DNA of 63,762 nt, filler included, from Reclinomonas americana ATCC 50394 (lineage: Eukaryota), in NCBI GenBank assembly GCA_048213135.1. It is 21 parts of 21 records of this genome, joined end to end, with 100 filler letters (N's around TTAATTAATTAA, not from the genome) between each part and the next. Parts side by side here need not be neighbours in the genome. Positions count along the whole stretch, not along the records: positions 48,617 to 56,739 come from AFZH01018052.1; 20 more parts are not named here. One strand, written 5' to 3'. How positions within the stretch are numbered: the stretch's first letter is position 1; every line of letters starts with the position of its first letter. Of this stretch, positions 29,650 through 62,484 are shown one piece after another. The position numbers and the translations under genes were made by a program. The notes below the pieces were generated by a model. The model was given only the letters and a program-made list of their open reading frames with translations. It ran no database searches and was not told the DNA's origin.

Positions 29650-32600
29650 CAGGAGAGAGATAAAGGGAGGAGAGCGAGTGAGTGTGTGTGAGAGAAGAAA
29701 AGCAAGCATGAAAATGTGAGTTTGTGTGATCACTTTGCACTGAGTGAGCATAACAGTGAGACACACACACATGCACTCTCTGTCTCTCTCTCTCTGTCAT
29801 GAACACATGCAAGTNNNNNNNNNNNNNNNNNNNNNNNNNNNNNNNNNNNNNNNNNNNNTTAATTAATTAANNNNNNNNNNNNNNNNNNNNNNNNNNNNNN
29901 NNNNNNNNNNNNNNCATGCAACGCAACTGGGGGTCATTGCCGACTTGAAATATTGATCATGTCATTGTCGAGAATGTTTGCATCTCGCGTCTAACAACTC
30001 TCATTTTCTCTCTCTCTTTCTCCTCTCCTGTCCACTCTCTCTCTCTCTCTCTCTCACGCACTCACTCTCTCACACGCATTCGCAGCATTCTCTCTCTCTC
30101 TCTTTTCTTGCCTCTCTTTCATTCCCTTGTCTCCCTTCCCTCCCTCACACATACGAAAGCCCTGCATTCCTTCACTTTGCGCACTCACCCCCCCCCCCGT
30201 CCTTTGCTCTCTCCCTCTTGTCTCTCTCCCTCTCTCTCTTTCTTTCTTTCTCTCTCTCTCACTCGCCCTTCTGTATCCCATCTCTTGCTCTCTCTCCCTC
30301 TCTCTTTCTCTCTATCACGCTCACTTCCTTATCTTCCTCCCTCTATCGCTGTCCTTCTTTTCCTTCTCTCCTTTCATTCCTTTTCCCTTTCCTTCCCTCC
30401 CTTCTCCCTTCCCTTCCTCCCTTCCTCCACCCCCTCTAGTCACCTTCTCTTCTCCTTTGTTTGTTTCTCCAGATGGACTCACGGTGAACACGCGCTCTGG
30501 ACCTATCCGCGGCTACATGCGCGATGGAGTGCGGCTGTTCTTGGGAGTGCCGTTTGCGCAGCCGCCGGTGGGAGATTTGCGGTGGGCGAACCCGGTGCGC
30601 GAGAATGCGTGGATGTCGGTGAGGGGTGAGTATGACAGCCGGAGGGGAGGAGGAGGAGGGAGAAGGGAATGAGAAATTAGAGACATCAAGGGAGATGGAC
30701 GAGATGGGTGAGGTCATGATTGGCACGTATGGAGAACGTGAAAAGAGGACCCAAGTGCTGAAAGCAGAATGCAGCATCGAGAGCAGGAGAGGGATCGACA
30801 GAAGCAAAGAAAGAACGAGTGACAGAATGAGACACATTCTGAGTGTGGGAGGGTGAGAGAGACTAGAGGGTGAGGTGAAGGCGGCAGAAGACGCAATGGA
30901 GGGTTGCGAGAGGCTGGCAAGTGAGTGGGACGGCAAGAGAGATAATGAGCACGTGTGTGAACGGCGAGAAACTCGGAGTCGGTGCTGAGATGACCTGACT
31001 GGGGTGACTGTTGGAGGAAAGAGCGAGGGAACAGCACGATTAGGGTTCTGAGTAATGCCCACGCAGATGCCACCCAATTCTCCGCCGGTTGCATGCAGGA
31101 TTGCGTGCTGCCGCCCAACACGTGCCCCCCGAGCATCTCCGAGGTATGTCTCTCTCTCTCTCTCTCGCTCTCTCTCTCTCTCTGTGCATGTGTGCGTGAG
31201 TGTGTCTGTCTGTGTCTGTCTGTCTGTCCGTCTGTCCTTCTCTCTCTGTCTGTCTCTCCCTCTGTCTCTCCCTCTGTCTCTTTCTCTGTCTCTCCCTCTG
31301 TCTCTCCCTCCCTCACCGTCCCCTCCCCCTCGCTCCCCGTATCTCTCTCTATTAGTCTTTCTCTTTCTCTCTGTCTATCTCTCTCTCTCTCTCCCTCCCN
31401 NNNNNNNNNNNNNNNNNNNNNNNNNNNNNNNNNNNNNNNNNNNTTAATTAATTAANNNNNNNNNNNNNNNNNNNNNNNNNNNNNNNNNNNNNNNNNNNNC
31501 GCTCTCCCCCTTCGCTCTTCCCCCTTCGCTCTCCCCTCCATCTCACCCATCTCTCCACCACTCAGTCACCGAGGACCTTGCTGGCGACTTTGGCACGGAG
31601 GACCAGCGCGAGGCCATGCGGGTGCGGTTCTCTCTCCCCACTTTCCCACTTTTCTCCACTCTCCTCTCACGCATCTCCCCGTGTCCGCAGTGGGTCCGAG
31701 ACAGCATCGCCAACTTTGGCGGCGACCCGAACAACATTACTCTGTTCGGCCAGTCAGCCGGCGGCACCTCTATTGCCGTGCACATGGCGTCAAACAAGAG
31801 CACTGTTTCGTCTCCTTCTCCACTCTCCTCTCTCATAACTTTGTCTCACCGCTGCTGTGCGCTCGCAGGGCCTATTCCACCGCGCCATTATCGAGAGCAA
31901 CCCGTTCGGCTTGCCGTTCAAGAACGTGAAGGAGAGCGTGCAGTTTGGTGGCGAATTCGCCAAGGTCATTGGCTGCGGCGATCGCGATGTGTCCTGCTTG
32001 CGCGGCCGCACCCCGGCGCAAGTGGTGACGGCACAAAAGGAGGCGAAGCACACGGACATTTTCAATGTGTTGTTGTGTGAGTTTTGGTTGCCGGCTTCAT
32101 GTTCCCTGTCCTCTCGCTGTGCTCTCCTTTCTCCCGCTGCTCTCTTTCTTTCGCTGTGCTCTCCTTCCCTCTCCTTCTTCTCTTCTTTCTCTTCCTTTCG
32201 CTGCTCTCTTCCTCTCGCTTCTCACTTCACCCTGTCCTTCCACCTCCCTCTCGCACAGCCGTGTACCGATGGGCCCCCACCGTCGGCCACGCTGACGTCC
32301 CGGAGCAGCCACTGGCCCTGTTCATGCGCGGCCACCTCGCCAACCCCGTGCCGCTCATGATTGGCACGGTCGCCGAGGAGGGCCTGATGTTTATCCACAT
32401 GGTCAGTGTGAATCACGGCCACGTTCCGATGATGTTTTGCTGAAGTGGTGTGGGTGGCAACAGGGTCTGGCCAAGCCGCTGCCATCGGTCGAGTACGACG
32501 CCATTCTTGGCCTGATTTTCAACGTCAAGGCCTTTGAGGTCCGCAACGAGTACCCAGCGCCGTCGAACACCACCGATTACCGCGGAGTCATGTCCACTGT

Positions 32601-47651: not shown

Positions 47652-50173
47652 TCATTTTGATTTCTTCTTGGCCGGCATCTTGCTCACGAATCGATGGGCA
47701 CGCTCGTCAATGTAGCGCCAGGGTACGTCGGCCCACTCGCCGGCTGTGGTGGCATGTCAGTGGCGCGGATAGAAATTGGGAGAACAGAAAACGCACCCGA
47801 GTCAATGCCGATGCGGCGGGTGGCGAGGACGTGCTCGTCGGGAGTGGGTTCGCCGGGCTCGAGGTAGATCTCTTCGTTGAGGTGGAGGTGCTGGCCGTCG
47901 TGGGCGTCACGGGTGATCTGTGGGGGAGGATGAGGGAAAGGCAAAGGCTAGGAAAACACAACACACGTACATGCATCGACTGGCACAGTTTGGAGGGACC
48001 GGAGCACAGGTCGGTGAGTGCAAAGGAGCTTGCCTGTGACGTGCGTGGTGAGTGCAACGGGAGGGGAGGGTTTTGATGCGCTGTGAGGGCACAAACCGGC
48101 GCGTTGCCGCGAGAGGCCGCAGCACGGAAATTCATCATGTGCTCGATGCCTTCGAGGGGTTCGAGGGCGCGGATCTGGGTGGGAGGAGAGTGAATGACAA
48201 GGGAAGGCAAAGGGAAGAGACAGACAGAAGAGGAAAGAGATACTGGCAGTCAATAGCACATCAAGAGTGAAAGTGAATCAGAAGAGACAGGCAGTGAGAA
48301 GAGAGAGAGAACAAAGAATACGGCGGAGGAGGTGGAGGAGGTGGCGGTGGAGGAGGAGGTGGTGGTGGTGGAGGAGGAGGAGATGGAGGAGGAGGAGGAG
48401 ATGGAGGAGGAGGAGTGAGAAGAGATAAAAGAGAAGAAGAAGACAAACAGAAGAGAGAAGAAGTAGAGAGAGAGACGAGAGAAGAAAGAAGAAACGAAAA
48501 CGAAACGAAAACGAAANNNNNNNNNNNNNNNNNNNNNNNNNNNNNNNNNNNNNNNNNNNNTTAATTAATTAANNNNNNNNNNNNNNNNNNNNNNNNNNNN
48601 NNNNNNNNNNNNNNNNTGGAGGAGGAGGAGTGAGAAGAAGAATAAAAAGAAGAAGAAGAAGAACAAAAACAAGAAGAAGAAGAAGAAAATGATGATGACG
48701 ATGAAGAACAAGAACAACAACAAGAAGAAGAAGAAGTAGAAGAGGACTGAAAAGGAAGAAGACGTGGAAGAAATAAGTGAAAAGAAGAAGAAGAAGAAGA
48801 AGAAGAAGATGGCGCGAAAGAAGCTGGAGACGGAGAAGAAGGCGCGGAAGGAGGAGGAGGAGGTAGCGGCGGTAGAGATGGTAGAAGAGAGGAAGGAAAA
48901 GACGGCGAAGGAGTACAGTTGGAGGTGGTGGAAGAAGGAAGAGAAAAATAACGGGAACAAAAAAGGACAAGTCCACCACAGCGGCCACGAGAGCGGCAGA
49001 CCATCACGCAGGAGGGGCAACGATGGCAGGAAAGCCAGAAGAATGGGGATGAACGCTGGAAAGCAGGGAAACACAGAGTTGCAGCGAGTGCGAGAGAGTG
49101 AGAGTGCGAGAGAAGGAAAATACACACGAGACATCGCCCTTCCCCTCTGACGCGCTCACCAGCACTCCATGCGGCGAATGCGTCGTGCAAATGACGTTGA
49201 TGCAGCAGTAGCCGTGGATGGGATACACGTATGCATGGCCCGGGCCCTTGTACATGCTCTCGTTCTTCTTGGTTCGACGGCCGCCGTCTGCGAAGGAGGA
49301 GGAAGGAGGAGATGAGGATGAAGAGATGTCACACGGAATTAAGAGGATGCAAGAAAGTGAAAGGAAGGGAGAGAGGTGGAATGGCTTGGTCGACAGATAG
49401 AAAGGGGTTGAAGAGGGAGCGCGCAGTGAGAGAGATGAGGATCAAAGGAGTTTGCAGGAGGGATTCTGTGTTCAAAGTGAGTGAGGAAGGGGACGAAGAG
49501 AGGGGGACGGAGAGGCAGAGAGAGAGAGAGAGAGAGAGAATGTGGGCAGGGGAAGGAGAGGAAGAGATGAGGGAGAGGGGCAACGAAGAAGAGAGGGAGG
49601 AGGAAGAGAAAGCACGCAACACGAGTGAGCAGCTCGATCATCGGGTCCAGCATATGCCTTTTTGACACAGGATGAGAAGTCGATGCAGAGCAGAGGACGA
49701 GGAGAGAAGAGGTGGGAAGGAGAGAGCGCAACTTCCACCTCCACAATGCGACCGCGCATTACCACGTCGTCACCAATCCTGTGAGAAGAGTGAGTGAGCG
49801 AGAGAGTGAGTGAGTGAGTGAGAGGAATGCACTTCCTTTCTCCTCTTCATCTCTTCTCCTCTCCCTCCTCTCCTTCTCTTCTCTCTCTCCCCTCTCTCCT
49901 CTCCTCTCTTCTCTCTCCTCTCTCCTCCTCTCTTCCCTTCTCTTCTCCCACACACACTCACCTCCCACACACTCACCTCCGCACAAGCACAGCACCCAAC
50001 AATCGCTTGGCCACATCGTGCACACTCGACTCTGGCGCAAAGATGACTTGCCACAGTGAATCAACCTCTGCAGTTGCTTCAGTGCGGATGCAGGCGCGTT
50101 TCCGGTCGGGTTCTGGTAATGAGGAAGAGGAAGTGGCGTCTTCTGTTACGGAGCGAGTGCGACGACGACTCAT
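47652..50173 (-). CDS. MPG: 3-methyladenine DNA glycosylase (MPG/AAG family), 8 exons
   Basis: Spliced motifs AKRLLGAVLVR, GRIVEVEAY.GPDDRAAHS, PGHAYVY, VLIRALEPLEG, LCSGPSKLCQ, RIGI and PWRY. Confidence 0.92.
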
Positions 50174-50396: not shown

Positions 50397-50430
50397 ATGT
50401 CGGTGCGTCTGTCACACTCTTCTCTCTTGC

Positions 50431-50479
<49 letters not shown>

Positions 50480-53400
50480 CACACTTTTCGCACACACTCT
50501 CTTTCTCGTTTATACATGTTTGTATTGTTTGCATTTACACTGTTCTCCTCTCGCGCCCACTTTGTCACCTCTCACTCATCGCTCTCTCCCCACCCTCTCT
50601 TCTCGTGCAGTTCTCTGTGCATGTGAGTGCGGCGCATGATTCGTCGCTGTCGGTGGTGGTGGAGGGCATGGCGGCCATGTCCACTCTCGCAGACTTGCTG
50701 CGTGAGGCCACACGCTTGCTGCGAGAGAAGAGTGGAGACGAGGAGATGGAGATTGTGGGAGTGGAGAGGCCGGTGCCATATGATATCGTAGACGGTGGCG
50801 GCATTCCGCTTCGCATTTTGGGCATCAATTCATCCACTCATCTCGTCGTCCGCGTGAATGTACGCGTGGCGCCGCAGTCGAGTGGATGGAGTGGGAGTGG
50901 GAGCGGAAGGTGTGTATGTTGGATGTGTTTGTGGTTCATTCACTGTGCCAAACATGCCACTCACTCTCACGTCTCCCAGCAGCAACTCGGAGCGAGTGAC
51001 TCGGTTGGTTTTTTGTCTTCATCAACCTCTTCTCCCCCTCCCATGTTCTACTCTCCATGAGAGTCTGCGCTGACCCAGTCTGTGTGTACACAGCATAATC
51101 AACTCGCAGCGCATCAGCATGGCCTTCGAGGTGGTGGAGGAGGCCGTGCGTCTGTGCTGTCAACGTACACTGGCGCAGTTCAGTCGAGATCATTCCGACT
51201 TTGACGTGCGGGCGTGGGTGCCGAGTTTCACGCCCGCCGGTATGGATGCGGTGGCAGTGAGGACGTGGCGTGAACGACATGCCCCTCTCCTCCCCTCTCG
51301 AGTCAGGCTGTTTGAGGAGAAGCATTCGGTGGTGTTGTCCTGGCGTGTGGCATTCGACACCAACCCCTCATCCGACCCTCTGTGTGACGGTTTCGACACG
51401 ACGGCACTCACCTCCATCATGCTGTATGGTGGACTCGTTCAAGACAATGGTCGCAAGGTGCTTGTGATTGACAATTCCGGCGTTCGAAAGACCTTGGAGG
51501 AGCTGGTTACTATCAGAAACAAGCTAAGGCACGACGAGATGCCATTCACGCAGGCCACTGTGCAGCAGTACCTTGGTGACGGTGGTGTCTTCCTCTCCAT
51601 CCTCTCTCGACTGCCGTTGACGGCTGACGAGGTTGCTCGATTCATTGCGCGTATCCGTGAGGCACGTCACGTGCAGCTAACTATCAGCACATTCGATGAA
51701 CGACTTCATCGACTGGCTGTGCGTGAGCTCTCATTCTACCAACACGACGAGAACGTGCGCAAAGACATGCAGATGTATGTGCCACTGCTGTGCTCCCGCG
51801 ATCGTGAAGTCTCGTCGAGGTACAAGATGGCAGATCTGTTATCTGAGGTGGATGCGTTCCTCTCCGACACCAACACCTCGCAGCGCGTGTTGGTGTTGTT
51901 TGGCAACAGCGGGGCCGGTAAGACCACCACCATGTCGGTGCTGGCCGAGCGAGCATGGCAACAGTGGCAGACGAGGGAAAGCAGACGAGTGCCTGTGCGT
52001 GTGCCTCTCGGTGCTCTGCGCAATGCCGATGAGCGATTGTTGGAGGAGGCACTGGAGCGACTGTCGCCTGACTTGGGTCTTGACGAGGATGTGCGACGGT
52101 TGAAGGAGGAACCACTGCTGTTGTTGCTTGACGGATACGATGAGTTGTATCGCGGTGTAAATCTGTTTGTCAAGAACCAGCTGGATGTGTGTCGCGATGT
52201 GAAGGTGATTATCACCTGTCGCGGCGATTATGCGCTGACGGCACTGGGTGGTGTGACGCAGTATCGACGGTACTTTGCACCAATGAATGCGCGAGGACAG
52301 CTGTGCATACAGCAGTTGATGGAGCGACATATTGCACCATTTGACAAGAAGCAGATTGAGGAGTACTTTGAGCGGCTGGTGCAAGTGGATGGTGATGATG
52401 ATGAAGTGCGATGGTCGACTGCGGAGGAGTACATTCTTGAACTGAAGAGTGTCCATGGGCTTGATACTCTGGTGTCGAATCCGTTTATGCTGGCTGTGGT
52501 GGCTCGTGTGTTGCCGCAGTTGGTGGCGAATGGTGTGCAACGACCGACTCGGTGCGATGTATTTGACCGATTCATTCGACAGTGGATTGCGAGGGAGCAG
52601 GAGAGGCAGACGCGCCTTGGCGCAAAGCGTGTACCGAGTGAGGACGTGTGTCTCTCGTTCTGCGAGGGACTGGCAAGGTTGATGCATGAGAGGAATATGG
52701 TGCGGGTGGTGCCAGAGGAGCAAGCGTCTGAAGAAGACGTTGCTGACTTTGGTGGTGCGCCACTCGATCGTCGGCGAGTGGAAGAGGGACCGTTTGACAA
52801 GTTCCTCGGTCATAAGAATCAGCATGTGCGAGTGTGCTGTCCGATTGTGCGACGGTACGGGACGACGCAGTGGGGATTCGTGCATCTGTCGTTGCTGGAG
52901 CACTGTGTGGCACGACATGTGTTTGCGTGGGAGACGTGGGATGAGAAGAGGAGACTTTCGGTGCAAGATGTGCAGCAGCATGTGTTGGCTGTGCGACTCC
53001 TCAATGATCGACCCTCGTTGGTGGAGCAGATGGCCGAGGTGGTGCGACGGTCTCCTGCATTGCAAGCGAGACTGTGGGAGGTAATTGAGCTGTCACGGGA
53101 GGTGGATAGCATGAGGTTGGTGACAGCAGCCGCGAATGCAGCAACGGTGTTGTGCGTGGCACAAGTGTCGTTCAGTGGGCGAGATCTGTCGGGAGTGCGA
53201 GTGAGGGGTGCGGATTTGAGGGATGCAGTGATGCACCGGACGGTGTGGAGGGGTGCGGATTTGCGAGGAGTGAATGTGTGCATGGCGTATGCGAGCGATG
53301 CGGATTTCAGAGGGGCGGATGTGACGGATGTGAAGTGGCCGAAGATGCCGATGGTAGGGCACACAGGCTCGGTAAACGCCGTCGGCATCTCTGTAGACAA

Positions 53401-55198
53401 TCAGTACATTGTGAGTGGGAGTTTTGACAAGACTGTACGAGTGTGGTCTGTGGCGAGTGGACAGCTAGTAAGGCAGTTCATTGGGCATGCGGAAGTTGTT
53501 CGTTCTGTTGCTTTTACGCCTGATGGTCAGTATGTTGTAAGTGGGAGCGGAGACACAACAGTTCGCGTGTGGTCGCTTGTGAACGGCGATGAGGTGATTT
53601 CAATGCACGGGCACTCGTTGTCTGTGCTCTCTGTTACTGTTTCTCCTGATAGTCAGTTTGTGGTGAGCGGGAGTCAGGATTCGACCGGACGACTGTGGTC
53701 GCTGGAGAGTGGAGACGAAGTGCGACGGATGGAGGGCCACTCTGCTGCTGTAAGATGCGTCATATTTACGTCAGACAGTCAGCACATAGTGAGTGGAAGT
53801 GAGGATAAGTCTGTGCGAATGTGGTCGTGTGCAACTGGAGAAGAAGTACAACGGTTTACGGGGCACAAGCATATGGTATTATGTGTTGCCATCACTCCCG
53901 ATGGTCAGCAGATCGTGAGTGGGGGGACCGATAGGACAGTGCGTTTGTGGTCTGTGGCGAGTGGAGAAGAGATGCGACGGATGGAGGGACATGGTGGCAT
54001 TGTACTCTCTGTCGCTGTAACCCTCGATGGTCAGCACATAGTTAGTGGGAGTCGTGATCGCACTGCACGAAAGTGGTCACCAATAAGCGGCGCTGAATTG
54101 CATCGATACGACTTGTCTGTGGATGAAGTGAATTGTATTGTTTTTTCTGTCAACAGGCAACTTGCTGTCACTGGCAGCTGTGACTTTGCCGTGCGGGCGT
54201 TGTCGCTGGGTGGAATCGATGAGTCCAGACGGCCACGGGAACACGCTGGCTTGGTGAACGCTATCGCCGTCACGCCTGACTGTCGGTACGTCGTGAGTGG
54301 CGGCTTGGACAAAACAGTGCGTTTGTGGTCGCTGGCGAGTGGAGAAGAATTGCGACGCTTTGAGGGGCACACTGATCCGGTGTCCTCTGTTGCTGTCACC
54401 CACGATGGCCAACGCGTCGTCAGTGGGAGCTTTGACGGTTCTGTACGAATATGGTTGCTGACGAGTGGAAAGGAAATTCAGCGCTTGACGGGACACGCTG
54501 CTGGAGTGCGCTTAGTTGCTGTCGCTCGTGATTGTCGGCATATTGCGAGTGTGAGTAGTGACGACACCGTGCGGCTTTGGTCTTTGGTGGGCGAAGGAGA
54601 ATTGCTGCATGTCTGGGAAGCTGCAAGTGGGGCTCAAGCCGTCGCCTTTTCTCCCGATGGGCAGTACCTTGTGTGTGGAAGTAACGACGACACAGTACGA
54701 GTGTGGTCTCTTGACAGTCGAGAGGATGTGCAACATTTCATGGTTAGCAGAGTGATCGTTTCTATCGGTGTCACTGCTGATAGTAAGTTTGTGGTAAGCG
54801 GGGGCACTGACGAGAAACTGCGGCTGTGGCCGCTGGCAAATGACACGGAGGTACGAATATTTGGCGGATGTGCTTCGCAAGCTATTTCGATCGCGCTTGC
54901 TCCTGACGGCCAGAATACTGTATGCGGAAGTTGTGAACCAACTGTTCGTGTGTGGTCCACCAGCGCGTATGTGCGTTACGGTGAAACTCACAATGTTGAA
55001 AGGATATTGCGGATATCTTCACTCGCCGATCATGTGGACTGTATTTCTAGCTATGCTGCCCCCGCCGATCTGTTGATATTTTCGGTTGACGCCGCGATCC
55101 ACATACTGCGACGAGATGCCGAGGGAGAGCTGCTCTTGAGGGTGCTTGGTAATTTTCTTCCGAGTTTCGATGGCGCATTGCTTGGGTTCTTGACGTGA
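50397..55198 (+). CDS. NLR-like STAND protein: ubiquitin-like, HEPN, NACHT, pentapeptide, WD40 x13-14
   Basis: Exons 50397-50402, 50611-50909, ~50980-51003 and 51094-55198 splice in frame. Motifs: FDTTALTSIM...IRNKLRH; Walker A GNSGAGKT; Walker B LLLLLDGYDE; KVIITCR; SNPFML; FVHLSLLEH; AAANAATVL followed by pentapeptides; 42-aa GH...W repeats. Confidence 0.92.
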
Positions 55199-56009
55199 TC
55201 GCTCAAGTGCTCAGGTTGTTGACGGTATCAATGAAATGCATATTTTGATTACAGTCCGTGTTTGCCTTGTATAAATTACTGGCCTGTGACGTGCGCAAAG
55301 ATGGAGAGAGAGAGAATCGAAGCTGAAGAATGAGCTATTCTACGTGCGCTTGAGCCACATACCAGCATCGCACCGGACGGGCCCTATGCGGTTTGAAGTC
55401 GAAAATCACTTGCCAATCGTTTCAGTTGCCGTAGTAGGAGGCCTTTCTTAATTTTGAAGACGCTGACAAGTACCCAGACCAGTCTGGCATGGCCTGTTCG
55501 CCGGAATCCATGCTGACATTACTTTTATTCCATCTGCTGCTCTGCGCCATTGATTGACGCCATTAGTTGACGATATGGTGGCCGAAACCACTTCACCGCT
55601 TCTCTCTTGCGGTAAGTGCAAAGCTCTGAGTCTCATAGGCAGGAAGTGTTGTGAGCGAGGTGAGAGCTGCACGTGATATTCTGGTAGGTCGTGTAGAAGG
55701 AGCGACCAAATTTGCAATTAGCGACTCTTGGCAGAGGGGCAGCCTGCGCTCTCGAGATCGCGATCGTGCCTCAGCGTGTCTCTTCTGGTGCCGACCTTTC
55801 CTTCTAGTCTATTCCACTCCATGCATACACGTTTCCTCTCTTTTCGGCCTGCAACACGCATCTCACATTGTTGGCGTAATTTGTCGGATTTGTTCGAGAT
55901 CGATTTCCGGCTGCACGCCAGCCACGCCGGTCACTCCCAACCTGACTCTCCTCCTGCCATCACAGCATTTTTTATCCCGAGTCCCCTGAGCAAAGATCAC
56001 GTAGTCATA

Positions 56010-56739
56010 ATGCGGTTGCGCCAGGCACTGCCAACATGTATCCTTCTCATTGGACTGTTTGTCTGTGGAGGTTTGTGTTTCCCACAAATTGTCTTTTCTC
56101 TCCATCAACTCACCTCGATCAATCGCACAGCTGCCGCTCAAGACGCAACCTCTGGCATCACCAACGTGCCGCGCGACACGAGCTCATCGAGCTCACCCAA
56201 GTCGTCCATCCCTCTCTTCGCCTGGCTCGCCGGTGGAGGTGGCTTTGCGGGAGTCGCGCTCGGTGTCGTCATTGGCTGTTGCTGGTGTGGCGGGTGCGGG
56301 TGGCTGAGGCGCTGCTGCTGCTGCTGCTGTGAAAGGAAACCCACAACTGCACGCAACGACGTGGATCTGGAGGCCGGACGTATGGTGTGTGGGAGAAGGA
56401 GCGAAAGAGACGAATAGAAGAGTTAGAAAGAGAGAAGGACGCAGAGGCAGAAAAGAAGAGAGGCAGCGAGCATGAGTAATAACTGCAAGGAACACCATGA
56501 GTTTCGACAACCAAGCATGTGACAGAAGTGACAGAGAATGAGAAAGAGAAGGCGTATCAAGAGAAAGGGATGCAGAGACAGGGGGAAAGAGAAAGAGAGG
56601 AGTTTGAACAGCGAGGGTGAGAGATACCCTGTAAGAGCGCCATGAGTTTCGACAGCCAAGCACGTGACAGAGAGGGACCACAAGAGACACAATCGCCCAC
56701 TCATGCCTTCTTTCTCACACACAGCACGGCGCCGCCCGC
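56010..56739 (+). CDS. Small single-pass membrane protein with a Cys-rich juxtamembrane tail, 3' end in a gap
   Basis: Signal-peptide exon MRLRQALPTCILLIGLFVCG, short Ser-rich ectodomain, Gly-rich TM helix, then CCWCGGCGWLRRCCCCCC. Confidence 0.65.
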
Positions 56740-58811: not shown

Positions 58812-60893
58812 TCACTCCACAGTCATCATCTCGTAGCCACCAGACTGGTCGTACGAGTAGCGTTGTGCGAAGGCAGCTGTTGCGCACGAATGGCAATCGA
58901 TCAGTCTTCTGCTCGACAACAACGCGTGTGTGGAACAGTGCCGCCTCTCACCCTTTTGGTTGAATGGTGTGTGGTGGTACGGCTCAATGACTTCCAATGG
59001 TACGCCTGTTGAGCTGCCGGATGCCTCGCCTGCGCCGCCGTGGTACATGACATCGTCGCACTGGAAGCTGACGGCTGAGTCTGTCGAATCGGCCGAGCCA
59101 CCACGGTCAATGCCGTCGCCGAGCGACTGATGCGACTCGACGCACACGCCCTGCGACGCCTGAATGTGCGCGCCAATGCGGCACACCACTTGCTCTGTGC
59201 AGCAATGGCACGACGACTCGTGGACACTGGCCGAGTGGGCGCACAGCTGTGTGGTTCGCGTGTGAGCAATCTTTGTGCAAGAAGAGAACGATCTCCAATA
59301 AACAAGCAAACAAACAAACCTCCTGCTGGTAGCGCTGGAAGTCGCTGGTGGAGATTGACAGGTTGAAGTTGATGAGGTAGAGGAACTCGAGCTCCAGTGC
59401 GTTCATCTCCTTGTTCGAGACACCACCGACGCGGGCGTAGTAGCCGTTGTTGTAGTAGACATCGTCAAAGAACTTGGCGGCCGTCATCACCGAGGTGACC
59501 AACAATCGGTGCACGTTCAGCGTTGAGATGATGAAGCCCGGATTCCGGTGAATCAGACGGTCGAGGTAGATCAGGGCAACCACAAAGCACTCGGGTGAGC
59601 AGTGCGCGTACTTGACAAGCCGGTCGAGGTAGGCGCGAATGGTGATGGCTGGTGTCTTGAGCGCGTGGAAAATCGTGACTTGTTGTGCTGACAATGACAA
59701 CTGTGCGCGGGGGAGAGGCGTGGTGAGAGACTGAGGAAAGAGGGTGGAGGGAGAGAGGGTGGAGAGGCGGGGACACCCGAATTGAACATTGGTGGCGGGG
59801 GAAAAGAGGGCCGGACATGAAGAGAAACACAACGACACGGCACAAGCACGGCACAAGCACACGTGCCGGGCAAAACAAGTAGGAGCAATCCCAAAGTGGA
59901 AACGGGTGCCGCCACGCAACCGGAAGGCAGGTGCAAGGGAGAAAGCGGATGAAACGCAGAATCGATCTTTTTTCGGCAATGTGCGACTGAAGGAATTGAT
60001 AGGGCGCATATTGACCACACACACACACACACACACTCGGCAGAATGTGCACCCCCGAGGGGGGCGTGACAGAAGAGGGAGAAGGAGGAGGAGGAGGCGT
60101 GGGGGAAAAACTTGCAGACTCAAAGTGGCCACGTCCGCTCATCGCAACGCGTGCACCACCCTCCACAGCCATCCACACACGCACGCAGAGACCCGCGCCC
60201 GCGGGGCAAACGGAAGAGTAGCCAATGCACGTCCACAAGCACACCGAGAGAAAATGTGTAGACACCGGAGTGAAAGAAGAGCGGGGAGAGAAGTGGTGAA
60301 CTGCGAGAAGGAATCTCGTGCAGCAGTCATACCGACAACGACTACAAAATAAAAACGCCTCTCTCTTCTCACAGGCACGCACGCACACAAGCACACACAC
60401 ACACCCCAAGCAGCGGGGAGAGGAAGAGCGAAAGAAAGAAAGAGAGGCGCGGGGCAGGGGGAGGAGGAGATGGCGCGATCAAAAAAGACCAAGATGGAAA
60501 TCGCGCGGCCCGCTAACCGTCTCTCGCGCCCGCGCGCTCTCGTTAATTGCACCCTCTCTTTCCCTCCCCACACATACACACCCACTGTGCCCAACACAAC
60601 ACACACCAAGAAAAAAAGCGCACAAGACAACATGGAAGCGCATCATCATCATTCATCACAACACTCACCTCATCATTACGCGACGTGATTTGTGACAGGA
60701 CTGTGCGCGTGGTGACACGAGGTGAGCGACACGCAGTGAGAGGGGGAAGGCGGCCAACAGCAAGTGGAGACGCACCACAGCTGAGAATGGGCACAAAGAA
60801 TGCGTTGGCGGTTTCGGCATCGGCCAGTGACTGTGTCGCCTCCTCAATCAGACACAACGGTGGCGACGGTGGCGGTGGTGGTGCACGACGATG
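58812..60893 (-). CDS. PHO80-like (cyclin P/U) cyclin, 5' end in a gap
   Basis: VLSQITSRND...IFHALKTPAITIRAYLDRLVKYAHCSPECFVVALIYLDR...NVHRLLVTSVMTAAKFFDDVYYNNGYYARVGG...LELEFL. Confidence 0.9.
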
Positions 60894-61224: not shown

Positions 61225-61261
61225 CTCATTCGTCGCGCGCGGACCACACTGCTTTTTTTAG

Positions 61262-62124
61262 ATGGACTTGTCGGTGTTGTGGCTGTTCTTTGCGATTCTC
61301 GTGTTCTTCCACGCGGGAGAGGTGCTGCTGGTGTGGGCCTACAACCCAGAGCAGCTGAGCTGGGACTGTTGCGTCATGTGCATGAAAGAGAGTGTGTGCA
61401 TGCCCTTCTCAATCAATCACACACATGCACAGCGACGCTGATCACGTGGCCGTACACGTTTGCGGTGTCATGTGGTGTGAGCGAGTTTGTGGCGACCGAG
61501 TGGATGTGGCCGTCGCTGAAGCACGTCGATGCCATCTTCTACTTGGGATTGACAATGGCGGTGGTGGGCGAGCTGCTGCGCAAGGTCGGTATGGTCACGG
61601 CCAAGCACAACTTTACGCACCTGGTGAGTGAGCGCGCGCGCGCATCCACATCGGTGTTGTTGTTGTTGTGCTCATCGCCGAGGCAGGTGCAATACGAGAA
61701 GCGCCAGAAGCATCGACTCGTCACCTGGGGCATCTACAGGTCTCTCTCTCTCTCTCTCTCTTGCACTGCGTGTGCGCCCTCTCACTGCTGCCGTCCTGTC
61801 TCATGCCCCGTGATTGCATGCAGATTCGTGCGGCATCCGGGCTACCTTGGCTTCCTGCTCTTCGCCGTCGGTCTGCAAGTGATGCTGCACAATGTGGTGT
61901 CGACACTCGGCTTTGCCTACGTGCTGTGGAGGTTCTTCACCGATCGTCTCGAGTTGCGTTGTGCGCTCACCAGCAGGTGTGGGAGAGAGAGAGAGAGAGA
62001 TATCGAACCTGCTCACTTGTCTGCTTGCGACAGGGACGAGGAGGAGATGCTGGGCAAGTTCTTTGGTGCCGAGCATGCGGCGTATCGTGCGCGTGTGTGG
62101 AGTGGCATCCCGGGATGGCCGTGA
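61262..62124 (+). CDS. ICMT: Isoprenylcysteine carboxyl methyltransferase, 5 exons
   Basis: GELLRKVGMVTAKHNFTH, HRLVTWGIYRFVRHPGYLG, FFTDRLEDEE..L..FFG. Confidence 0.92.
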
Positions 62125-62384: not shown

Positions 62385-62484
62385 NNNNNNNNNNNNNNNN
62401 NNNNNNNNNNNNNNNNNNNNNNNNNNNNTTAATTAATTAANNNNNNNNNNNNNNNNNNNNNNNNNNNNNNNNNNNNNNNNNNNN

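Follow-up and report, generated by a model that had tools for sequence, protein, structure and literature searches.

A 63,762-nucleotide stretch of DNA from the eukaryote Reclinomonas americana ATCC 50394 (assembly GCA_048213135.1; hereafter the window, with positions counted along its full length) contains an intact gene with the layout of an NLR-like receptor. The gene lies on an 8.1-kb contig (AFZH01018052.1, 48617-56739 of the window), where a single uninterrupted frame of 1359 codons runs along the + strand from 51119 to 55198. Its product combines a NACHT NTPase, pentapeptide repeats and WD40 repeats with an N-terminal helical domain, which we call the head. The head is probably a HEPN-fold domain of the Swt1/DZIP3 group, judging from a consistent set of sub-threshold similarities, and we somewhat favour the reading that it is an active RNase effector.

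An intact NACHT-pentapeptide-WD40 gene

The frame was identified in an open reading frame (ORF) search of the window. Pfam places in it, in this order, a NACHT domain (PF05729, aa 256-418; 35.9 bits against a cut-off of 26.7, E 8.4e-09), pentapeptide repeats (PF00805, best stretch aa 685-717; 27.5 bits against 20.2, E 2.4e-06) and WD40 repeats (PF00400, 11 stretches; 343.5 bits against 27, E 3.9e-106). Following the repeat register, we count 13 WD40 units across aa 736-1280 – 12 of 42 aa and one of 41. Tandem Repeats Finder reported no array with the ~126-nt period of a WD40 unit in the DNA of this region, returning two short, low-scoring rows with a period of 9-10. The 79-aa tail that follows the repeats is possibly a degenerate 14th blade.

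The initial annotation of this locus, made from the sequence alone, had described an NLR-like gene with this layout and a complete NACHT NTPase. Both descriptions hold: the Pfam matches lie above their cut-offs, and Walker A (GNSGAGKT, aa 262-269) and Walker B (LLLLDGYDE, aa 334-342) are intact, as are the IITCR sensor motif (aa 364-368) and NPFML (aa 454-458). Positions of the features are collected in Table 1.

The head weakly resembles Swt1-type HEPN domains

Swt1-type HEPN domains are marked by an Rx4-6H motif in which a polar residue, usually N, follows the R. The head has R133-N134-K-L-R-H138, which fits this pattern and has an N after the R. RNKLRH occupies aa 133-138 (nt 51515-51532, with R133 at 51515 and H138 at 51530), and FDTTALTSIM, which begins with FDTTAL at aa 92-97, occupies aa 92-101 (nt 51392-51421); the initial annotation had based its proposal of a HEPN nuclease on these motifs and had placed them exactly. 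A bare Rx4H carries no weight by itself, because shuffling the N-terminus, which is rich in R, yields one in 56129 of 100000 cases. RNxxxH is rarer, arising in 1667 of 100000 shuffles (1.7%), so we treat the motif as a lead and not as evidence.

Consistent with a Swt1-type HEPN, Pfam searches with eight sub-windows of the head returned PF18731 (HEPN_Swt1) in six (E 0.078-0.21, 12.3-13.7 bits), always aligning aa 123-154 to profile positions 76-106 of 115. Radical_SAM was the one other family returned, in three of the eight (E 0.11-0.16), and we regard it as noise. PF18738 (HEPN_DZIP3) gave no Pfam match at E <= 10, either with the whole domain or with the eight sub-windows. In a protein-language-model atlas, aa 1-235 ranked a HEPN_Swt1 cluster first (0.81) and a HEPN_DZIP3 cluster second (0.79) – scores that, lying below 0.9, are a lead only and are common with shuffled proteins. 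Of the DZIP3/Swt1 type first assigned to the head, the Swt1 part is supported by a consistent but sub-threshold signal, whereas the DZIP3 part has no Pfam match.

A family sample was assembled by searching 401 Pseudomonadota genomes for PF18731, which gave matches at 14 places in 13 genomes; the 12 above the cut-off were kept and two were dropped. A hidden Markov model (HMM) built from these 12 bacterial members scored the head at 7.8 bits (E 1.4e-4, for a single target), aligning aa 118-141 to the family helix that ends in the R-N-x3-H motif. Its full score was reached by 2 of 5000 shuffles and its best-domain score by 4 of 5000. None of 120 listed natural NACHT relatives, all of them far longer than the head, reached 7.8 bits (best 5.7).

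Profile-profile comparison extended the similarity beyond the motif. Aligning the head to the 12-member family with hhalign gave P = 0.0031, with a local score that 0 of 360 shuffles reached. With mact set to 0.05 the alignment covered aa 13-163 (reached by 1 of 176 shuffles), and in global mode the score was 17.2, whereas the shuffles peaked at 12.0 (0 of 166 reached it). An unforced MAFFT alignment showed the head to be collinear with the family, with H138 in the invariant His column and R133, W50, L97 and L18 in columns kept in 11 of the 12 bacterial members. Among the columns conserved in at least 10 of the 12, the head matches five of nine.

Evidence against a HEPN head, and its alternatives

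Several results weigh against this assignment. The 234-residue N-terminal piece had no match at E <= 10 in Pfam, PADLOC or NCBIfam, and phmmer with the head found no homologue, with none of 1.84 billion cluster representatives reaching E <= 0.001. Pairwise BLASTP of the head against a PF18731 family member was not significant. The sub-window match to PF18731, at about 13 bits, is less than half of the family cut-off of 27.5; hhalign assigned a probability of only 10%; and four of the nine conserved columns differ. The single-sequence AlphaFold2 (AF2) model of the head was unusable, with a predicted local distance difference test (pLDDT) score of 36.8. When AF2 was given alignment A2, which consists of the head and the 12 bacterial PF18731 members, it returned an all-alpha model (pLDDT 66.3, predicted template modelling score 0.60) with helices at aa 2-24, 44-57, 60-69, 94-103, 120-137, 145-152, 157-164 and 169-214; this model presupposes the homology under test and is not an independent fold. 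Part of these scores, moreover, comes from the very motif that suggested the HEPN hypothesis, so that the tests are not fully independent of it.

Other searches returned nothing that identifies the head. Comparing its sequence with the PDB gave noise only (E 0.31 and 0.35), aa 1-240 matched none of the proteins of 747-2379 residues at E <= 0.001, and a contig scan with aa 1-754 confirmed no relative. Foldseek found nothing in the PDB at E <= 0.001 for the A2-conditioned model. The rows of the VIA structure search were dominated by the long helix at aa 166-215, where the matches are coiled coils or other long helices, and a complex of two copies of aa 1-168 predicted without an alignment was uncertain in fold. 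Profile comparison or Foldseek had been proposed as the check on the HEPN fold; the hhalign P value is low and the accompanying probability poor, and Foldseek is without a PDB match. Neither the models nor the structure searches could demonstrate the fold.

No search reached conventional significance and the structure searches were empty. Together with atlas scores of a height frequent among shuffled proteins, and a hypothesis chosen from the motif that contributes to the score, this would suit a helical domain that is peculiar to the lineage and unrelated to HEPN, for instance an adaptor or a helical extension at the N-terminal side of the NACHT, in which RNxxxH and the weak matches arose by chance. 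However, three different methods converge on one small family out of 24736 Pfam models, the similarity is collinear over about 120 columns beyond the motif (hhalign with mact 0.05 and in global mode), and shuffles seldom or never attain the scores (2/5000, 0/360 and 0/166). We consider a chance resemblance unlikely and a HEPN fold of the Swt1/DZIP3 group probable.

Fold does not settle activity. A HEPN-derived head could be catalytically dead – an RNA-binding or homotypic adaptor, as proposed for the eukaryotic Swt1 HEPN – with killing or signalling residing elsewhere. The differing columns speak for this: R137 replaces the Ala that is invariant before the His in the 12 bacterial members, Q150 replaces their invariant Arg in the next helix, and G111 and L58 stand in place of a conserved Trp and Val. 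Inactive Swt1-type and nematode HEPN domains are, in addition, described as likely sensors (PMC3710099). The core R-N-x3-H is nonetheless complete here, and those three residues are usually lost in inactive versions. We regard a dead HEPN as distinctly improbable, and an RNase-active head as the reading to be preferred with modest confidence; activity is uncertain even if the fold is HEPN because four of the nine conserved columns differ.

The bacterial family itself takes two forms. A profile search with alignment A2 gave 3948 matches, of which the 120 listed are all solo PF18731 proteins of 133-195 aa, those rows that name an organism being mostly alphaproteobacteria; none of the 120 is close to the head (best phmmer E 2.4). 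In the Pseudomonadota sample, five loci (L016, L018, L021, L022 and L023) encode a solo Swt1-type HEPN of about 190-205 aa, with RxxIAH instead of RNxxAH in L018, L022 and L023. At five others (L013, L014, L015, L019 and L020) the Swt1-type HEPN lies within an open frame of 1050-1223 aa, which suggests that it is part of large fusion proteins there.

The chassis has relatives in Mortierella and its endosymbionts

We use chassis for the part of the protein from the NACHT to the WD40 repeats. A search with aa 200-740 gave 410 matches at E <= 0.001 among 7999 scored candidates (best E 2.6e-46), and the NACHT relatives share 26-31% identity over 81-100% coverage. Among the 120 listed of these 410, every row that names an organism is Mortierellaceae, Mycoavidus, Glomeribacter or a Mortierella endosymbiont, and no such row is a ciliate. 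The chassis had been called typical of Mortierella, ciliates and endosymbionts; the listed relatives and the literature (PMC11291939) uphold the first and last of these, but not the ciliates. NACHT-PPR-WD40 receptors of Mortierellomycota are described as acquired from, or common to, Mycoavidus (Ciach et al. 2024, PMC11291939).

These receptors of Mortierellomycota, Mycoavidus and Glomeribacter share the order NACHT, pentapeptide repeats, WD40 with the Reclinomonas protein and are the best sequence relatives of aa 200-740, but identity is only about 30% and the N-terminal modules are different. Walker A could be located in 116 of the 120 listed proteins, where its median position is 620, compared with 262 here; their N-terminal modules therefore differ, and are mostly long and Arm-like. 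A Swt1-HEPN-like head was present in 0 of the 120 (best 5.7 bits, against 7.8 here), from which we infer that the head has been swapped relative to the nearest relatives.

A likely upstream exon

A TGA at 51071-51073 closes the main frame; within that exon, therefore, no start is possible ahead of the methionine at 51119. Codon statistics point to a further coding exon upstream, likely at about 50611-50859 and in another frame (Table 1). Codon log-odds over 50605-50859 are 0.32 bits per codon in this frame, whereas the remaining frames give -0.53 and -0.41. By the same measure the N-terminal part of the main ORF reaches 0.21; over 50860-51057 the value is about 0, and the signal returns at 51082 in the main frame. 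A codon model trained only on exons of the other contigs gives the upstream exon 0.213. On the + strand from 49000 to about 50500 the codon statistics contain no coding signal.

The CAG at 50608-50610, behind its CT-rich tract, would be a good acceptor for this exon. The splice sites leading on to the main ORF are open to choice, since many in-phase GT-AG pairs could make the join. Besides the pair in Table 1, a more canonical donor, AAG/GTGTGT, lies at 50910, and could be used with an acceptor that ends at 51078, 51093 or 51117. In-phase GT-AG pairs prove nothing, however, because about one pair in three is in phase by chance. The initial annotation had extended the gene over 50397-51118. Of this span, the exon at about 50611-50859 is backed by codon statistics only and the rest is not confirmed; a gene start at 50397 is possible.

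The initial annotation had also given the protein a ubiquitin-like module. The 83-residue product of the upstream exon has no Pfam match at E <= 10, but the atlas offers a weak lead: its nearest clusters are unnamed (0.86), Rad60-SLD follows at rank 6 (0.84) and ubiquitin at rank 25 (0.82). We consider it possible that the exon encodes a ubiquitin-like (beta-grasp) module. We found no description of a pairing of a ubiquitin-like module with HEPN.

Table 1. Features of the NLR-like gene and its 5' region, in window coordinates.
Feature	Position	Strand	Basis
CT-rich tract with a (CT)n run, up to CAG at 50608-50610; candidate acceptor with its polypyrimidine tract	50420..50610	+	sequence read
Candidate upstream coding exon, 83 codons, in a frame other than that of the main ORF	50611..50859	+	codon statistics
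Candidate intron, 250 nt, phase 0; GT at 50860, AG at 51108-51109	50860..51109	+	drop in coding signal; in-phase GT-AG pair
N-terminal helical domain (head), aa 1-168; candidate distant Swt1-type HEPN	51119..51622	+	weak profile and atlas matches; no significant single-sequence relative
Helical linker from head to P-loop, aa 169-255; aa 169-214 predicted as one long helix (pLDDT about 72-93)	51623..51883	+	AF2 model on alignment A2; structure search
NACHT NTPase core, aa 256-418	51884..52372	+	Pfam PF05729; Walker A 51902-51925, Walker B 52118-52144, IITCR 52208-52222
Post-NACHT helical and winged-helix region, aa 419-679; NPFML at 52478-52492	52373..53155	+	part of aa 200-740, covered 81-100% by relatives
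Pentapeptide-repeat segment, about aa 680-735	53156..53323	+	Pfam PF00805; sequence read
13 WD40 repeats, aa 736-1280	53324..54958	+	Pfam WD40; repeat register
C-terminal tail, 79 aa, then stop codon	54959..55198	+	ORF end and repeat register

Genomic context and the standing of the locus

The window is joined by 20 identical 100-nt linkers (3927-4026, 5174-5273 and so on to 62385-62484), each made of 44 N, TTAATTAATTAA and 44 N, with stops in all six frames of the core. The window thus strings together short contigs of about 1-8 kb, and genes that adjoin across a linker give no evidence of synteny. Other ORFs of the window match SMC proteins, a carboxylesterase, a PHO80-type cyclin, isoprenylcysteine carboxyl methyltransferase and others, in several pieces, which identifies the source as an intron-bearing eukaryote.

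The locus might not be a working host gene at all, but a recent transfer, a decaying copy or another organism's contig in a fragmented assembly. The window consists of short contigs joined by linkers, and neighbours in it are not proven neighbours. This protein class, moreover, is thought to move between endosymbionts and fungi (PMC11291939). The base composition of the ORF also counts for this possibility and against an ordinary host gene: GC content at third codon positions is 0.578, compared with 0.66-0.82 for exons of the other contigs, and the codon model from those exons scores the ORF about 0 (-0.028), though far above its other frames. Such values fit a foreign or fast-evolving gene and prove neither. 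Yet the frame is open for 4080 nt with every NTPase motif intact, and the contig has the CT/GA microsatellite style of many other contig ends together with an exon-intron signal. That this is no functional host gene seems to us very improbable.

Many contigs of the window break at CT/GA microsatellites. At the left end of the present contig, a GA-rich low-complexity tract (48620-48920) gives a spurious coding signal on the minus strand, with ORFs of poly-Ser/Glu type. Downstream on the same contig, part of an ORF at 55728-56417 (+) resembles a small membrane protein, combining a hydrophobic leader and a single hydrophobic span with a Ser-rich stretch and a Cys-rich tail; with codon statistics of about 0, the ORF may be no gene.

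Genes on other contigs are recognizable as follows. Several large SMC-family exons at 10315-15931 (-) cover the N- and C-terminal halves of SMC_N, the hinge and the coiled coil, with a linker inside at 14824-14923. Three ORF pieces at 29995-33757 (+) match positions 4-56, 200-270 and 429-515 of a carboxylesterase profile, and look like one multi-exon carboxylesterase gene spanning the linker at 31400-31499. A PHO80-type cyclin lies at 59110-60138 (-; E 3.8e-37), and a fragment of an isoprenylcysteine carboxyl methyltransferase at 61225-62121 (+; E 1.6e-13).

Comparison with known HEPN and NLR systems

A HEPN head on a NACHT switch is an established kind of protein in animals and bacteria. DZIP3-type HEPN domains fused to NACHT, CARD, DEATH and LRR are described in animals, CXorf38-type HEPN-NACHT fusions in cephalochordates and cnidarians, and HEPN-STAND fusions in bacteria, while active Swt1-family HEPN solos are described in Naegleria, dictyostelids and Daphnia (Anantharaman et al. 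2013, PMC3710099). The oyster is reported to have >50 proteins with an N-terminal DZIP3-like HEPN on NACHT, some oyster NACHT proteins end in WD40 repeats, and the Rx4H motif typically begins with RN (Takeuchi et al. 2022, PMC9646362). Among bacterial NACHT proteins, HEPN is listed with the effectors and pentapeptide and beta-propeller repeats with the sensors (Kibby et al., 10.1101/2022.07.19.500537). For the N-termini of fungal NLRs, the main text of one survey makes no mention of HEPN, and its supplements may list more domains (Wojciechowski et al. 2022, PMC9815663).

The DZIP3/hRUL138-like HEPN-NACHT proteins described in bivalves, cnidarians and other animals are alike in having an N-terminal Rx4H HEPN, a NACHT and C-terminal repeats – LRR, TPR or WD40 in the DZIP3-like proteins reported from oyster. 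The Reclinomonas protein differs from them in that its weak signal is to PF18731 and not to PF18738, and in its Mortierella/bacterial-type NACHT with a pentapeptide spacer. The collinearity of the head with bacterial PF18731 proteins takes in the D-x-x-x-L helix, a helix that has T-I-R-N-x-x-x-H at its end, and the next helix. These proteins occur as solos (about 190 aa) and as fusions (1000-1200 aa), and the examples fetched are without NACHT-WD40; the match of the head to them, however, is below every conventional threshold, and it departs from them in the four of nine conserved columns. The antiphage bNACHT proteins with enzymatic effector heads follow the same logic of sensor repeats, NACHT and N-terminal effector, but here the gene lies in an intron-bearing eukaryotic assembly and apparently has at least one intron itself. 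What is particular to the Reclinomonas protein is the combination of a very divergent Swt1-like head, a Mortierella/bacterial pentapeptide-WD40 chassis and a possible ubiquitin-like exon.

A proposed RNase-armed switch

With about the same modest confidence that we place in an active head, we propose that the gene encodes one eukaryotic STAND/NLR-type switch composed of a probable Swt1-type HEPN head, a helical linker, a NACHT, a pentapeptide spacer and about two WD40 propellers. The domain layout of this switch is shown, and the working steps are extrapolated from the families to which its domains belong. In this scheme the WD40 propellers would bind a trigger, and the NACHT would exchange nucleotide and oligomerise with ATP, pairing the HEPN heads; the pentapeptide beta-helix would act as a rigid spacer. 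HEPN enzymes form a composite, metal-independent RNase site, and R133, N134 and H138 of two paired heads could form such a site here. Cleavage of RNA would then arrest growth, kill the cell or destroy invader RNA. If it is real, the ubiquitin-like module could serve to regulate the head or to tether it.

A wider claim may be put tentatively: that a non-animal eukaryote built its own RNase-armed NLR by placing a fast-evolving HEPN head, possibly with a ubiquitin-like exon, on a bacteria/Mortierella-type chassis, as an independent third assembly of HEPN with an NLR, next to the animal and bacterial ones. We find this doubtful.

The finding reveals no new principle. A head that lacks a detectable relative among 1.84 billion representatives does show how fast such effector heads diverge. 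If the pairing with a ubiquitin-like module is true, it could regulate or localise the nuclease. Should the head prove to be an active HEPN RNase, a further eukaryotic lineage would be seen to arm its NLR-type switches with an RNA-cutting effector, here on a chassis otherwise from bacteria and early-diverging fungi – which would bear on the shuffling and transfer of immune modules between kingdoms.

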